A stretch of DNA of 64,000 bases from an uncultured cyanobacterium (lineage in GTDB: Bacteria; Cyanobacteriota; Cyanobacteriia; Cyanobacteriales; CAWCAG01), in assembly GCA_963793425.1 (NCBI GenBank), contig CAWCAG010000005.1, forward strand, positions 832,001 through 896,000. The letters run 5' to 3'. A program made the position numbers and the translations under genes. The notes beneath the pieces are model-generated. The model did no database searches, was not told where the DNA came from, and was given only the letters and a program-made list of their open reading frames with translations. Positions 20,676-23,756 of this stretch are shown piece by piece. The first letter of the stretch is position 1. Each line of letters opens with the position of its first letter.

Positions 20676-20689
20676 AGCACAAATGTACT
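20676..20689. promoter_or_regulatory. LexA-like (cyanobacterial SOS) box
   Basis: AGCACAAATGTACT, one mismatch to RGTACNNNDGTWCB; lies within near-palindrome TAGCACAAATGTACTA. Confidence 0.6.
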
Positions 20690-20720
20690 ATTTTGAAGTT
20701 AAAGAAATTTTCCTTGGCCC

Positions 20721-20750
20721 TTGACAAGTTATGTAGTACTCGTGTAGTAT
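20721..20750 (+). promoter_or_regulatory. Sigma70-type promoter with overlapping second LexA-like box (20735-20748)
   Basis: TTGACA (20721-26), 18 nt spacer, TAGTAT (20745-50); AGTACTCGTGTAGT one mismatch to LexA consensus. Confidence 0.6.
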
Positions 20751-20816
20751 TAGAGCAACAAGACAAATCAAACATCTAAAACAACATACTCAAACAACCG
20801 CCTTGGTTAGAGAACA

Positions 20817-21017
20817 ATGGTTCACATCAGATTTGAAGGTCGTTCCTACGACGTTACCGAACGTCAATTAAGAGTAACTCACCAAATGAATAATACTCAA
20901 ATTAAGGAACGTTTAGCACAGCACTTTGATATCAATATAGATCGCTTTTCCGATTATGTGGTCGATAAACGACCTAGTGGCGATTTAATTGTACGTCCAG
21001 AAGCAGTTTACGGGTAA
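20817..21017 (+). CDS. 66-aa hypothetical protein heading the Ro-like locus (possible beta-grasp fold)
   Basis: ATG ORF directly after the promoter; beta-beta-alpha-beta-beta-like pattern, ends RPEAVYG. Confidence 0.75.
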
Positions 21018-21037
21018 GTTAAAACTAAAACTTTTTT

Positions 21038-21186
21038 TCCCGCGTCCTAACCTCTTAAGCTTACATACTTTTTCGTTTGCGGAACGGAAGGTCACAGGTT
21101 CGAGTCCTGTCATTCCCGCTTAAAATGGGGATGTAGCTCAGTGGTAGAGCGTCAGTATCATAAAAGCTTAATTGACTTGCGCGGGA
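21038..21186 (+). ncRNA. Y-RNA-like unit 1: carrier stem + complete circularly permuted tRNA (anticodon GCG)
   Basis: TCCCGCG/CGCGGGA terminal stem; anticodon arm TTCGT-TTGCGGA-ACGGA; T arm ACAGG-TTCGAGT-CCTGT; closed acceptor CATTCCC/GGGGATG; D arm GCTC-AGTGGTA-GAGC. Confidence 0.85.
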
Positions 21187-21222
21187 CAACCTTTAAATTC
21201 TTGCTCCTGTTAAAAACAAGTA

Positions 21223-21344
21223 CTTCGCGCCCTAACTTAAAAAGCTTACATACTAGCTCAATTAGTAGAGCGCTTGACTCAAGATCAAGAAGTTGCAGGT
21301 GCGATTCCTGCGTATACTCAACAGCTTTTTTAACTTGCGCGAGG
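21223..21344 (+). ncRNA. Y-RNA-like unit 2: carrier stem replacing the acceptor stem of a D/anticodon(CAA)/T tRNA body
   Basis: CTTCGCGC/GCGCGAGG stem; D arm GCTC-AATTAGTA-GAGC; CTTGA-CTCAAGA-TCAAG; T arm GCAGG-TGCGATT-CCTGC. Confidence 0.85.
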
Positions 21345-21365
21345 TCACTTTTTTCCTCAATTTTT

Positions 21366-21511
21366 ACCGCGTCCCAATTTGCAAAGCTTACATACTATAT
21401 TAATCCATCGGTCGTAGGTGCAAATCCTACCATCTCCGTTGCCAATGGAGATGTAGCTCAGTTAGTAGAGCAGTGGAATGTATCTGAAATAGCTTTGCTA
21501 ACTTACGCGGT
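21366..21511 (+). ncRNA. Y-RNA-like unit 3: YrlA-type permuted tRNA opened in the anticodon loop
   Basis: ACCGCGT/ACGCGGT stem; TCCAT/GTGGA anticodon stem; T arm GTAGG-TGCAAAT-CCTAC; closed acceptor CATCTCC/GGAGATG; D arm GCTC-AGTTAGTA-GAGC. Confidence 0.85.
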
Positions 21512-21537
21512 TTGATTTTAAACAAAAATAAAATTAC

Positions 21538-21686
21538 TTCCGTATCCTCATCTAAAAAGCTTACACACTAAGGAATCTGTTATCTGGAAAGATACGTGGG
21601 TTCAAATCCCACCAACCCCGTGGTTGTGGCGGAGTGGTTAAACGCGATAGATATTGTGAAATACAGCTTTTTTAACTTGTACGGAA
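21538..21686 (+). ncRNA. Y-RNA-like unit 4: permuted class II (Ser/Leu-like) tRNA with variable arm
   Basis: TTCCGTAT/GTACGGAA stem; TCTGT/ATAGA anticodon stem; variable arm TATCT-GGAA-AGATA; T arm GTGGG-TTCAAAT-CCCAC; CAACC/GGTTG acceptor; D region GGCGGAGTGGTTAAACGCG. Confidence 0.85.
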
Positions 21687-21713
21687 ATTCTTAACCCTAT
21701 AGGGAGGGCATCT

Positions 21714-22100
21714 ATGTCTACAACAACTTTACAAGTTCTTGAACAACTGCAAACCTTTGCTTTCCAAGAAACACAGGAATTAGTAAAGCAAATCGAAGCA
21801 GCTTTTAATGTAGATGTTTCCTCCCAAGTAACCTTTGCCTATTCCCTTGATCCAATTAACTTAACTGGGGAGGATTCTGAAAAGCCAATGGAATTTGATG
21901 TAGTTTTAGAACAAGTCCCTGCTCAAAATAAGATTGCCATCATTAAAGCGTTGCGAAGTCTGACAGGACTGAGTTTGCGAGAATCTAAACAGATGGTTGA
22001 TTCTGCTCCTACAACCATCAATCAGTCAGTGGATCTCCAAATAGCTGAGGCAACGAAAATTCAATTAGAAGCAGTTGGTGCAACAGTTGCTTTGAAATAA
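21714..22100 (+). CDS. Divergent ribosomal protein L7/L12 paralog
   Basis: ELVKQIEAAF N-domain, EFDVVLEQVP..KIAIIKALRSLTGLSLRESKQMVDSAP C-domain; no rplJ next to it; Ala-rich hinge replaced. Confidence 0.9.
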   Translation: MSTTTLQVLEQLQTFAFQETQELVKQIEAAFNVDVSSQVTFAYSLDPINLTGEDSEKPMEFDVVLEQVPAQNKIAIIKALRSLTGLSLRESKQMVDSAPTTINQSVDLQIAEATKIQLEAVGATVALK

Positions 22101-22142
22101 GTAATTTGTTTTCGACTCACAAATGGTAAAATGGTAGCTGTC

Positions 22143-22216
22143 GCCGCGTCCCAACCGAGAGAGCATACATACTTCCCTGTCACGGAATACAAACAAGCTT
22201 TCTTAACTTGCGCGGC
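22143..22216 (+). ncRNA. Y-RNA-like unit 5: carrier stem + bare Asp-type anticodon hairpin
   Basis: GCCGCGT/GCGCGGC stem, GAGAGAGCATACATAC..AAGCTTTCTTAACTT scaffold, cargo TTCC-CTGTCAC-GGAA (anticodon GTC). Confidence 0.75.
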
Positions 22217-22273
22217 CTCAATAAATCGGCGACATCTATCTCTCAAACTTCGATTCATAGAGGAGGTAGTACA

Positions 22274-23716
22274 ATGACAACTATGACCAAAGATGAACGC
22301 GACTTGCGTTTAGAAATGCTGAACAGTTTGCTAACAACCCCTCACCGTAAACTAGAAGAAGTAGCCGACTTGCATAAAATGCTCGTTGAGTTAGACCCCT
22401 TGTTTTACGGACACTTAGCAATTTGGTATCAACATAATGGTGATATACGTGACCACAAAGAGGTTTTTGTTGGTAACTTGCTGGCTAGTAAGTTAACTGT
22501 CCACAGGGATGCAGGGTTTACGATTTTGCAAAGCTTTCCTCCTTACCAGGTAGCACGAATTGTAGATTTCATGAAGCAGAAACTAGGTAAAATGCCTCGC
22601 TCTGCGCGCACTGCGGTACGTCGTTACTTAACTCACAGAGAAAAAGTTCCTGCTAAGTTCGATAGGGCGGCATTGCGAGGGCGTAAAGCCATGAAACACC
22701 TTTATGCTACCTTACACATCAAACCCAATCCTCGCGCTGATGCAATCCTCTTTAAGGAGCAACCCCCTGAAGGCAGTTTGGCATTAGCCCTAAAGCAGCT
22801 AGCAAAAGCAGAAACCCCTGCTCAACAGGCACAGATGATTGTGGAACATCGCATTCCCTACACTATTGCTGTAGGTGCTGTGAAACAGATTACCCCCACA
22901 GTGTTAGTCGCCTTGATTAACTCCATGTCTCCCCAAGAGGTGATCAACAACCTCAAGCCCCTTAAAGGCAAGGGAGCAATGGATCATCCTGATGTTAAAA
23001 CTCTCATTGATGCTAAGTTGGTTGCTGCACAAACTGACTCCCGTGTATCTGCTTTGAAAGGGAAGGTGGCAGCGAAAGCCGCAAGGTTAGATAAAGGCAC
23101 TACTGCCCAGCTAGAAAAGGTTATGGATACTCAGGTGAAACAGCGGGGTACAATCAAAAAGCCTACTGCTTTGTTGGTGGACAAGTCTAGCTCTATGAAC
23201 ACAGCTTTAGAAGTTGGTAAGCAAGTTGCAACCCTGATTTCTGGAGTTACAGAAGCTGATTTATTTGTCTATGCTTTTGACACCATGCCTTATGAAGTTA
23301 AGGCAACTGGTAAAAACCTTAGTGATTGGGATAAAGCTTTCCAATACTTAAGGGCTGGAGGTGCAACTAGCATCGGTTGCAGCATAGAGGCAATGCGCCT
23401 GAGAAAGCAGGTTGCAGAGCAAATCGTCATGGTAACTGATGAAGGAGAAAATACAGCTCCTTACTTTGACAAAGCCTACGACGACTACTGTAAAGACCTC
23501 TCTGTACGTCCTGATGTAGTTATTATTAGGGTTGGCCATAGCTGTGACTATGTAGAAAAGAGGTTGCAGAAGAAGCAAGTGCAAGTAGATACCTTAACTT
23601 TTGCTGGTGACTACTACTCTTTGCCTAACTTAGTGACTCTGTTGTCTCGTCCTTCTCGTTTAGAGTTGTTGATGGAGATTTTGGCAGTACCTTTACCTGT
23701 CAGGGATGACAAGTGA
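22274..23716 (+). CDS. Ro60/TROVE-like RNA-binding protein with C-terminal vWA domain
   Basis: AGGAGG 22261-66 then ATG 22274; basic helical N-terminal region; vWA MIDAS DKSSSM, GGATSIG, VTDEGEN; adjacent Y-like RNAs. TROVE assignment is inference. Confidence 0.75.
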
Positions 23717-23723
23717 ATTATAT

Positions 23724-23756
23724 TAGGGTAAGTTAATTGCTTGCCCTATTTTTTTT
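23724..23756 (+). terminator. Intrinsic terminator closing the Ro-like locus
   Basis: TAGGGTAAG / CTTGCCCTA stem followed by T8. Confidence 0.8.

Follow-up and report, generated by a model that had tools for sequence, protein, structure and literature searches.

The locus at positions 20676..23756 of the window (the 64-kb stretch of cyanobacterial DNA that was analysed) is probably an operon for a divergent ribonucleoprotein of the Ro60-Y RNA type. All of its elements lie on the + strand. The parts listed in the original prediction, namely a 66-aa ORF, four tandem RNAs, an L7/L12 gene, a fifth RNA, a 480-aa ORF, and promoter- and terminator-like sites, were each found where they had been placed. 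The same prediction had spoken of a candidate new ribonucleoprotein system; the locus is better classed as a divergent form of the Ro60-Y RNA type already known. Ro60 homologs of bacteria and phages are described as binding Y-like RNAs that are encoded just upstream (PMC4201824; PMC12135203). By analogy with the known role of Ro60-Y RNA particles, the most probable role of the system would be RNA surveillance, or the handling of tRNA or ribosome-related RNAs, in stress or phage conflict.

The 480-aa protein (22274..23716, + strand) is predicted to adopt the Ro60-type fold, with a helical-repeat ring closed by a C-terminal vWA domain that carries a MIDAS motif. Ro60 proteins bind Y RNA on their outer surface and accommodate misfolded RNA in the central hole. 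The Pfam TROVE model did not match this protein at E-values up to 1, a PF05731 search of the whole genome was negative, and TROVE is absent from the 25 Pfam families listed for 58 family members, 16 of which match the Pfam family vWA_Ro60 (PF25045). Despite the missing PF05731 match, homology was shown by the family profile, which, when compared with PDB chains, matched human Ro60 (E = 4.6e-17), Xenopus Ro60 (7.9e-15), Thermus phage Ro60 (8.7e-15), and Rsr (2.6e-8), with the longest sequence-profile match to the Ro60 of Thermus phage phiLo (positions 23-393). The AlphaFold2 (AF2) model has a pLDDT of 90.2, and Foldseek listed Ro60 structures in its first 11 places, with TM scores of 0.56-0.68 over ~455-510 alignment columns, the highest TM on target (0.68) being that of phiLo Ro60. 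VIA-align gave Z scores of 22.3 to D. radiodurans Rsr (2nvo; 439 residues aligned, 3.9 Å), 22.0 to 9nen, and 20.9 to phiLo Ro60. The MIDAS residues D303, S305, S307, T365, and D389 are invariant across 58 diverse homologs. The expectation of a divergent Ro/TROVE-like protein was thus borne out by both the profile matches and the modelled fold, and an annotation gap becomes apparent, in which proteins labelled merely "vWA domain-containing" or "hypothetical" are relatives of Ro60. A C-terminal EF-Tu domain 3 (PF03143, 31.8 bits, cut-off 27) is present in one member of the family, P0146, and one homolog contains an intein.

Five RNA units, all on the + strand, are located at most 1.3 kb upstream of the Ro-like gene, inside the distance of ~4 kb from a Ro60 gene that applies to YrlA-type RNAs. 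A repeat search recovered five copies of a 5′ arm and five of a 3′ arm, and the unit pattern AGCWTACAYAC..AGCTT..RACTTR matched five times in the 5.28-Mb genome, always on the + strand in this locus; the reverse strand gave no matches, and neither did a reversed control pattern. When folded, all five share a design in which a terminal helix (P1) and a second helix (P2) flank a conserved internal loop and are followed by a variable module. The module of U1 (21039..21185) is permuted and tRNA-like, with a hairpin, a T arm, a closed acceptor-like hairpin, and a D arm (Rfam YrlA, 34.3 bits, E = 5.6e-5). U3 (21366..21511) is a YrlA-like permuted tRNA mimic that aligned over the full length of the YrlA model (36.5 bits, E = 1.3e-5) and folds with a z-score of -5.0. 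These are the two best YrlA matches genome-wide, at scores far below the Rfam gathering score of 69 bits (RF02553). U4 (21538..21686), identified by repeats and folding, combines the same stem with a T arm, a short closed acceptor-like hairpin, and an element resembling a D arm. The order of T arm, closed acceptor hairpin, and D arm was accordingly found in U1 and U3, by Rfam alignment and folding, and in U4, by folding. U2 (21224..21343) joins the same stem to a whole, unpermuted cloverleaf (ARAGORN tRNA-Leu CAA; Rfam tRNA, 50.5 bits), in which the tRNA order is normal, while the minimal U5 (22143..22216; repeats, fold z-score -3.8), located within the Ro-like gene's leader, has the stem and a small hairpin, with the tRNA-like part absent. 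Of the five tRNA-mimic RNAs originally proposed, all exist as modular units, but the permuted YrlA type is confined to U1, U3, and U4. An Rfam tRNA match at 21447-21620 was rejected, as the alignment revealed that it fuses the D arm of U3 with the T arm of U4.

The stem is the best-conserved part of the RNA family. The 5′ and 3′ ends of each RNA are predicted to pair, forming P1 and then P2, separated by an asymmetric internal loop with UCCYAAyyu on its 5′ side and AACUUG on its 3′ side. The loop sequence departs from the Rfam YrlA consensus, and cmscan places the Ro-binding stem of the YrlA model on P2 of the units rather than on P1; it is by inference, and not from any alignment by a program, that the internal loop is equated with the known Ro-binding site. 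Among 91 distinct units of the cloverleaf class, 95.5% of cells pair, compared with 30-51% when the partners are slid, and compensatory changes occur in 27 of 35 pairs, values that were reached by none of 500 shuffles; helices 1-3 are biased in this test, because units were chosen by a rule that required pairing in P1 and part of P2, whereas helices 4-7 are free of that selection.

A putative sigma-70-type promoter (TTGACA-18-TAGTAT, 10/12 matches) lies at 20721..20750 on the + strand, and its -10 element is overlapped by tandem TGTAGTA(C/T) repeats that form a putative operator. A generic promoter scan alone was not above chance (5 sites versus 6.3 expected). The site at 20721 is the single match in the 64-kb window to the extended motif TTGACA-N4-8-GTARYA-N4-7-GTARYAT, and 12 of 80 related loci likewise have this motif upstream of the operon, while their minus strands gave no match. 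A hairpin followed by a T run, resembling an intrinsic terminator (23724..23756, hairpin 23724-23748, + strand), is the sole + strand terminator-like site within 20400-24000. A single + strand transcript running from this promoter to this terminator would give rise to three proteins and five small RNAs.

The conservation of these elements was surveyed in the 80 related loci, with the numbers of loci that have RNA units, S66, or L12 taken over the 65 cyanobacterial loci that have at least 3000 nt of upstream sequence. Matches to the 5′-arm profile number 338 on the + strand and none on the - strand. At least one RNA unit precedes the Ro-like gene on the same strand in 63 of the 65 loci (median 4) and none was found in the other two, so that the RNA array is indeed kept by homologs. 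The conserved protein partner of the Ro-like system is, as judged by sequence conservation, S66 (20817..21017, + strand), the product of the 66-aa ORF, and not the L12 paralog. S66 is encoded on the same strand upstream of the Ro-like gene in 55 of the 65 cyanobacterial loci and in 16 of 19 phage loci (identity at least 38%), and its C-terminus, ...RPEAVYG, is invariant. The AF2 model (pLDDT 89.9) has a β-β-α-β-β topology and a beta-grasp-like fold; the best structural matches, MoaD and ubiquitin-like proteins, are weak (Z at most 5.2, Foldseek E above 0.2), and the C-terminus ends in YG, compared with the Gly-Gly of beta-grasp carriers (MoaD/ThiS).

The bL12 (L7/L12) paralog (21714..22100, + strand) matches Pfam Ribosomal_L12 (4.1e-22) and scores as a full-length bL12 equivalog (TIGR00855, 99.8 bits, cut-off 84.4). 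It is the second of two L12 copies in the genome, lies outside the rplJ-rplL context, and is 42% identical to the canonical rplL, which adjoins an L10-like ORF elsewhere on the contig (G000:C5:794 kb). An alignment of 20 paralogs showed that the N-terminal and C-terminal domains are both conserved. An Ala/Gly-rich flexible hinge is a defining trait of L12; the hinge of the paralog, SSQVTFAYSLDPINLTGEDSEKPM, is not Ala/Gly-rich. A full-length paralog is encoded in only 15 of the 65 cyanobacterial loci and in none of 28 phage loci, and is thus not essential to the core mechanism. The proposed L7/L12 paralog of the operon therefore stands as a true second copy, although as a merely accessory one.

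The divergent Ro-like family was detected in 33 of 301 sampled cyanobacterial genomes and canonical TROVE-positive genes in 41. Both families are present in eight genomes, indicating that they are not simple substitutes for each other. Full-length Ro-like relatives also occur, together with S66 and tRNA-like RNAs, on phage contigs of 200-595 kb. In these phage loci, where the Ro-like proteins are just 40-49% identical, a hairpin form of the module is bordered by the same loop motifs (31 matches on the + strand versus one on the - strand), and the same module is found within tRNAs with free ends and a complete acceptor stem of 7 bp.

The system shares with bacterial Ro60 (Rsr) and its YrlA/YrlB or Yrn1 RNAs, as described for Salmonella and Deinococcus (PMC4201824; 10.1101/312249), a ring-plus-vWA protein, small RNAs encoded on the same strand a few hundred bases from the gene, and a modular RNA design in which a terminal stem carries a module of T arm, closed acceptor, and D arm. 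Unlike Rsr, the divergent proteins (477-480 aa) escape Pfam TROVE; four to six RNAs are encoded per locus, compared with the one or two described for Rsr/YrlA systems; whole-cloverleaf and minimal RNA classes are added, the loop within the stem has a different sequence, the locus includes a conserved partner gene of 66 aa and, optionally, an L12 paralog, and linkage to RtcB/RtcA is absent. Canonical cyanobacterial Ro60 orthologs of 531-534 aa (Npun_F0915, Sta7437_1980) belong to the same phylum and have the same gene-plus-upstream-RNA layout, but they form a separate family, for which Table S1 of PMC4201824 gives one YrlA per gene. The Ro60 of Thermus phage phiLo (PMC12135203; PDB 9kop, 9l5y), among the best structural matches, is of similar size (~500 residues) and is itself phage-encoded, with the Y-like RNAs Yrl1 and Yrl2 upstream. 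As described in that paper, its RNAs differ from the units found here in having a CGAA-motif bulge and no tRNA-like module, and its reported partner is the host PNPase, with no S66 or L12 partner mentioned; no PNPase gene is linked to the present locus. Burroughs and Aravind's b7a-tRNA and ROT/TROVE "tRNA-like partner" platforms, as cited in 10.1101/312249 and PMC7824862, likewise place a near-complete tRNA-like RNA beside RNA-handling genes, sometimes Rsr, and include TROVE proteins in jumbo phages. By comparison with the platforms as summarized there, the cloverleaf is here embedded in a Y-type stem, the anticodon loops are hypervariable, and no Band-7 or RtcB neighbour is present.

The RNA units might have been nothing more than an ordinary cluster of tRNA genes or pseudogenes next to an unrelated vWA protein, and the tRNA calls made for U2 by both ARAGORN and Rfam, as well as 128 ARAGORN tRNA calls in the 80 related loci, every one on the + strand, would fit such a cluster. 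This reading is nonetheless highly improbable. The acceptor-like stem of the U2 class comprises just 4-5 bp and runs on into P2 without free ends, so U2 lacks the 7-bp acceptor stem of a functional tRNA, and its anticodon is the most variable position; the T arm precedes the D arm in three units; many of the calls are malformed or have "anticodons" such as CUA, UCA, and UUA, with the triplet unconserved between orthologs; the flanking stem covaries; and the adjacent protein has a predicted Ro60 fold. Standard tools will label some of the family's RNAs as tRNA genes, including apparent suppressor tRNAs. The units could also act in cis, as elements of the operon mRNA and not as free Y RNAs, by serving as punctuation for RNase P/Z processing, as stabilisers, or as a leader to which the Ro-like protein binds in autoregulation. 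Their tight packing, 21-57 nt from adjacent genes and from one another, is consistent with this proposal, as is the presence, in 50 of 75 loci, of a unit 100-260 nt ahead of the start codon of the Ro-like gene, a position suited to feedback control. Arrays of four to six consecutive units without an intervening ORF, however, exceed the needs of punctuation, the number and type of units vary among loci while the stem motif persists, and the tRNAs that enclose the module in phage loci have complete acceptor stems and free ends, all of which make a cis role very unlikely.

The remaining proposals concern what the particle does. In a conflict module, the tRNA-like RNAs, above all those of the cloverleaf class, would act as decoys, baits, or sensors for anticodon-directed nucleases or further weapons aimed at tRNA in the warfare between phage and host, and the ring, S66, and optional L12 would process or signal the damage. 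Such a role, which refines the Ro60-Y RNA explanation and does not exclude it, is conceivable, although we consider it unlikely. The anticodon loop of the cloverleaf class is the fastest-evolving part of the RNA, diverging about 10-fold faster than the remainder (0.330 differences per site inside versus 0.034 outside, in 318 related and hence non-independent unit pairs that are at least 93% identical elsewhere). Among 89 units, 50 distinct 7-nt loops and 26 triplets were found, and column entropy peaks at the anticodon (1.64 bits). The patchy distribution of the family, its phage-borne relatives, the intein in one homolog, and the MazEF pair and DNA methylase (Pfam) that flank the window locus also point toward conflict. 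Fast loop change could, however, equally reflect relaxed constraint on a part without a role, and the triplet of one cloverleaf subfamily is CUA throughout 31 ARAGORN calls, which is conservation and not diversification; PADLOC matched none of the locus proteins, and no phage or island genes or unusual GC content were found around the window locus. An RNA-repair platform, in which broken tRNAs or rRNA would be presented to the RtcB ligase, encoded elsewhere, or to different repair enzymes, as proposed for Rsr-YrlA-RtcB, appears improbable. Such a function has been proposed for Ro60 with tRNA-like partners (10.1101/312249; PMC7824862), and the genome encodes RtcB. This sole RtcB gene, however, is ~600 kb away on the same contig, in agreement with the original observation that none is nearby; the conserved neighbours that ORF clustering of the 80 loci detected include no family of ligases, kinases, or phosphatases, and canonical TROVE Ro60 coexists with the divergent family in the eight genomes noted above.

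In the Ro60-Y RNA type particle favoured here, the P1/loop/P2 stem would most likely dock on the Ro-like ring, as suggested by analogy with the terminal stem of Y RNAs and by co-conservation. The far end of each RNA would present an exchangeable tRNA-like module to proteins that read tRNA shape, with the 66-aa beta-grasp-like protein as the conserved protein partner and the L7/L12 paralog as an optional accessory through which the particle could be tied to translational GTPases or the ribosomal stalk. According to 10.1101/312249, the conserved D and T stems of Y RNA have no known factor. Handles on this question are now offered by the co-conserved 66-aa protein, the L7/L12 paralog, and the EF-Tu domain 3 fusion, and by the occurrence of one RNA module in several topologies (on the terminal stem, as a hairpin replacing the anticodon arm, as a whole cloverleaf, and in minimal form). 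The retention of both domains by the L12 paralog and the EF-Tu domain 3 on P0146 are links to translation, and involvement in a conflict between phage and host over translation is suggested by the occurrence on phage contigs of 200-595 kb. The gene set of the Ro-like operon may help to reveal what bacterial Ro particles do. More speculatively, and with the odds against it, Cyanobacteria and giant phages could share a "translation-mimic" particle composed of a Ro-like ring, a beta-grasp subunit, and interchangeable tRNA mimics, in which hypervariable anticodon loops would be baits or decoys for anticodon-directed weapons, and an L12 paralog or, in one lineage, a fused EF-Tu domain 3 would provide coupling to the GTPase centre of the ribosome. 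If so, the long-unknown partner of the Y RNAs' tRNA-like domain would be the translation apparatus itself.

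The Ro-like protein (480 aa, 22274-23716, + strand) belongs to a family of 952 clusters at 50% identity (E up to 0.001) and had more than 2,699 matches in the 90% collection, of which the top 120 were 69-100% identical; every named one among those 120 was cyanobacterial. Searched alone, the protein gave E-values that were all above 0.7 against the PDB (phmmer), a weak VWA_2 match as its only Pfam hit (E 0.007, with no match to TROVE in this single-sequence search), no match in NCBIfam, and, among PHROGs, only phrog_850, 'RNA-binding protein' (E 0.0014). A PF05731 search of the window's genome found none, while control genomes did give matches. 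A family profile built from 58 diverse members matched the human Ro60 chain (E 4.6e-17), the Xenopus Ro60 chain (E 7.9e-15), Ro60 of the Thermus phage phiLo (E 8.7e-15, profile positions 23-393) and D. radiodurans Rsr, the bacterial Ro60 (E 2.6e-8), and 16 of the 58 members matched Pfam vWA_Ro60. The AlphaFold model (pLDDT 90.2, pTM 0.75) bore out the TROVE-like ring fold expected for this vWA protein, which had been the main refuting test of the original prediction: the top 11 Foldseek entries listed were all Ro60 (TM 0.56-0.68, about 455-510 alignment columns), and VIA-align superimposed the model on Rsr with a Z of 22.3 (439 residues, 3.9 A), on human Ro60 with 22.0 and on the phage phiLo protein with 20.9, compared to 16.5 or less for isolated vWA domains. 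The MIDAS residues D303, S305, S307, T365 and D389 are invariant. Homology and fold are counted as established, from profile searches and a predicted model, and identify the protein as a divergent Ro60. Elsewhere in the family, P0146 (640 aa) carries a C-terminal EF-Tu domain 3 (residues 542-632; PF03143, 31.8 bits against a cut-off of 27), P0138 (901 aa) contains a LAGLIDADG-domain intein, and two tandem copies of the Ro-like gene, with products 66-67% and 71% identical to the window protein, sit within one 9.4-kb locus (L015 and L016).

Of 301 cyanobacterial genomes sampled, 33 (in 18 of 134 genera) had the Ro-like family, 41 had canonical TROVE genes and 8 had both. Chen et al. 2014 (PMC4201824, Table S1) list cyanobacterial Ro60 orthologs of 531-534 aa, each with one YrlA; going by that table, these orthologs form another family, distinct from the one described here.

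Five RNA units, U1 (21039-21185), U2 (21224-21343), U3 (21366-21511), U4 (21538-21686) and U5 (22143-22216), were delimited on the + strand by repeats and folding. In the repeat search, a 5' arm (..CCGCGUCCYAAC...AAGCUUACAUACU) and a 3' arm (..AGCUUU..UUAACUUGCGCGG) each turned up five times. The two-arm pattern had five matches in the 5.28-Mb genome, all at the operon and on the + strand, and none on the reverse strand; a reversed control pattern also gave none. Folding yielded a common frame that consists of a P1 helix of 6-7 bp, an asymmetric internal loop (5' UCCYAAyyu, 3' AACUUG), a P2 helix of 8 bp and a variable module, with z-scores of -1.7 to -5.0. In U1 and U3 the module runs T arm, long closed hairpin, D arm, which is the order of YrlA, and these two units are the top Rfam YrlA matches of the whole genome; their scores of 34.3 and 36.5 bits (E about 1e-5) do not reach the gathering score of 69. 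U4 has the same arm order with a short hairpin, and U2 folds as an entire, normally ordered cloverleaf (Rfam tRNA, 50.5 bits; ARAGORN, 'tRNA-Leu CAA'), the acceptor-like stem of which has only 4-5 pairs and continues through a small internal loop into P2. The predicted set of five modular tRNA-mimic RNAs therefore holds for the shared frame and for the tRNA-like U1-U4, with U2 unpermuted, and fails for U5, the module of which is a small hairpin only. The Rfam 'tRNA' match at 21447-21620 is chimeric, joining the D arm of U3 to the T arm of U4. Because the cmscan alignment places the terminal stem of the YrlA model on P2 of the units, the conserved internal loop is proposed only as a putative protein docking site. 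The third-best YrlA-model match in the genome lies outside the window (G000:C9:707950-708083, + strand, locus L003; 24.3 bits, E 0.017) and does not match the two-arm unit pattern.

The units are flanked by a promoter-like site from the promoter scan (20721-20750, +), by the ORF of the 66-aa protein S66 (20817-21017, +), by an L7/L12-like ORF (21714-22100, +) between U4 and U5, and by a terminator-like hairpin with a T run (23724-23756, +) after the Ro-like gene. Since adjacent elements are spaced by 21-57 nt and a single terminator-like site is predicted on the + strand of the region, it is plausible that the whole block forms one transcription unit. A generic promoter scan of the window was not above chance (5 sites, compared with 6.3 expected from shuffles). 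The 64-kb window has a single copy of the specific motif TTGACA-N4-8-GTARYA-N4-7-GTARYAT, at 20721; 12 of 80 related loci, from several lineages (for example L054:2144 and L078:2386), carry it 5' of the operon, with none on their minus strands, which indicates that the promoter is conserved. Tandem TGTAGTA(C/T) repeats overlap its -10 element, and these GTAGTA repeats may represent a putative operator.

The operon is bracketed by a divergently oriented C5 cytosine DNA methylase gene (19391-20641, -) and, on its far side, by a MazF/MazE toxin-antitoxin pair (23818-24392, -), an arrangement that is not kept in other loci. MazF is a toxin that cleaves RNA, and its adjacency to the operon may or may not be meaningful. 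The surrounding genes are ordinary chromosomal ones with unremarkable GC content, and no RtcB gene is linked to the operon. All named homologues of the proteins encoded in the window are from cyanobacteria, in keeping with its cyanobacterial origin. Upstream of the methylase gene lies the gene of an 852-aa protein in which an Hsp70-like ATPase domain is fused to a WD40 beta-propeller (16735-19293, -), and the window also contains a 6S RNA (15072-15254, -; Rfam RF00013, 90.6 bits).

Conservation of the RNA array was assessed in 80 cyanobacterial loci encoding Ro-like proteins 67-78% identical to that of the window; culturable strains named in these records include Fischerella muscicola PCC 7414, Calothrix sp. 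NIES-2100, Nostoc carneum NIES-2107 and Moorena producens 3L. A strict unit rule (5-bp closing helix, YCC loop, 7-bp second helix, RACTTR) recovered exactly U1-U5 on the + strand of the window, with one false match on the - strand, and about 200 units on the gene's strand of the related loci, compared with one on the opposite strand. A 5' arm profile gave 338 matches in these loci, all 338 on the + strand. Among the 65 loci having at least 3000 nt upstream, on which upstream counts were taken, 63 had one or more matches ahead of the Ro-like gene, 59 had three or more and 29 had five or more (median 4, maximum 6); L017 and L025 showed no unit. Homologues thus keep the array, as had been anticipated, and 50 of 75 loci have, as the window does with U5, a unit whose start lies 100-260 nt 5' of the Ro-like start codon. 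Matches to the 5' arm also occur downstream of the gene in 36 of the 80 loci, and Y-type units of about 201 nt recur there, for example at L021:5466-5667, L023:5648-5848 and L041:5884-6084.

Co-conservation of the protein partners was uneven. S66 lies upstream of the Ro-like gene on the same strand in 55 of the 65 loci (51-79% identity) and always ends in ...RPEAVYG. Its co-conservation with the Ro-like gene and the RNA array is tight and strand-specific. The L7/L12-like gene is a real second copy: the canonical rplL adjoins an L10-like ORF about 38 kb before the window, and in the paralog, which is 42% identical to it, the Ala/Gly-rich hinge is replaced, whereas the N-terminal helix region and C-terminal domain are retained. 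It is full-length in only 15 of the 65 loci (partial in 3 more), and of the partners originally proposed for the operon it is therefore the one that did not prove general. The S66 model (pLDDT 89.9) has the topology b-b-a-b-b, and its top structural matches, MoaD, ThiS-type and ubiquitin-like proteins, were weak (Foldseek E above 0.2, VIA-align Z 5.2 or less), with none in the PDB at E 0.001 or below by Foldseek; the predicted fold is described only as beta-grasp-like. Two ORFs absent from the window occur between S66 and the Ro-like gene elsewhere: a 240-aa ORF without a Pfam match in 43 loci (e.g., L027:2642-3364), and a 59-aa ORF with a SEC-C-like CxCGSG motif in 19 Nostocales loci (e.g., L029:3506-3685). 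ThiF-family and 280-aa genes found 3' of the Ro-like gene in Nostocales were considered as E1-like partners of S66 and set aside, since their homologues in the window's genome are unlinked, lying on another contig and 186 kb from each other. No PADLOC model matched S66, the L7/L12-like protein, the Ro-like protein or the 240-aa accessory protein.

The commonest unit class in the related loci is the cloverleaf type of 115-121 nt. An alignment of U2 with 90 distinct units (91 sequences) supported a seven-helix structure that pairs in 95.5% of cells, compared to 30-51% with slid partners; compensatory changes were found in 27 of 35 pairs, and none of 500 shuffles reached the observed values. Helices 1-3 are biased in this test, because the unit selection rule required them to pair, whereas the four tRNA-like helices were unselected. 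The RNA architecture is thus shared and covarying. ARAGORN called 128 tRNAs in the loci, every one of them on the + strand, with 'anticodons' CUA (31 calls), GAA, UAG, UAA, AUU, CAU and UGA and several malformed loops. With the two rows lacking a T-loop removed, the other 89 units contained 50 distinct 7-nt anticodon loops and 26 distinct triplets; column entropy was highest in the anticodon triplet (1.64 bits) and lowest in the 3' strand of the internal loop (0.20 bits). For 318 pairs with an identity of 93% or more outside the loop, differences per site were 0.330 inside the 7-nt loop and 0.034 outside, rates that serve as description rather than as a test, the pairs being related to one another. 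Judging by these variable loops, the cloverleaf-class RNAs are not ordinary decoding tRNAs, and the anticodon loop would be either unconstrained or under diversifying selection. A cloverleaf unit with a constant, amber-reading CUA lies upstream of S66 at L027:1758-1878 and in 30 other loci, mostly Nostoc records; ARAGORN names it tRNA-Pyl, so annotation pipelines may list it as a suppressor tRNA.

Relatives of the system were also found in giant phages. A 595-kb uncultured phage record encodes a full-length Ro-like relative (46.8% identical), and IMG/VR contains 27 loci with such relatives, many on contigs of 200-570 kb. Among the 19 IMG/VR loci at 38% identity or more, 16 have an S66 homologue upstream on the same strand, and the L7/L12 paralog was found in 0 of 28 phage loci. 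In the phage loci the loop motifs AACUUG and CCCYA flank a hairpin, ..AACUUG-GGAUAC-GAAA-GUGUCC-CCUAU.., which is closed by a tetraloop and takes the place of the anticodon arm in tRNAs whose acceptor stem has its full 7 bp. These hairpin modules (L087:1808-1938, other units in L087, and units in L095, L096, L098, L100, L106, L109 and L111) number 31 on the + strand and one on the - strand. The phage unit is a circularly permuted version of the cyanobacterial one, with the putative protein-binding module kept. Retention of the module while the RNA topology is permuted provides the strongest indirect evidence for the module as the Ro-like target, and the Ro-like protein probably recognizes the loop module and not the tRNA-like part.

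Several elements of the system are in print already: the association of bacterial and phage Ro60 with tRNA-like Y RNAs, several Y RNAs per locus, and whole-tRNA-like partners (b7a-tRNA). The literature searched contained no description of the TROVE-negative Ro-like family or of S66 (Sim et al. 2020 and Burroughs and Aravind 2016 may overlap), no L12 paralog beside Ro60, no arrays of four to six Y-type units with several module topologies, and no anticodon-loop hypervariability in such RNAs.

One possibility is that the tRNA-like RNAs act as decoy or bait for anticodon nucleases, a reading that would fit both the hypervariable anticodon loops and the phage link of the family. In the RNA surveillance particle proposed here, the operon RNAs would be co-transcribed and then processed, the Ro-like ring would bind their P1/loop/P2 module, and the variable modules would recruit tRNA-recognizing partners. 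Precedents are the particles of Rsr, Y RNA and PNPase and, in phage phiLo, the complexes of Ro60, Yrl and PNPase (PMC4201824, 10.1101/312249, PMC12135203). The L12 paralog, or an EF-Tu domain 3 fusion, might link the particle to the ribosomal stalk or to translational GTPases, and the most likely role of the particle would be RNA surveillance during stress or phage conflict.
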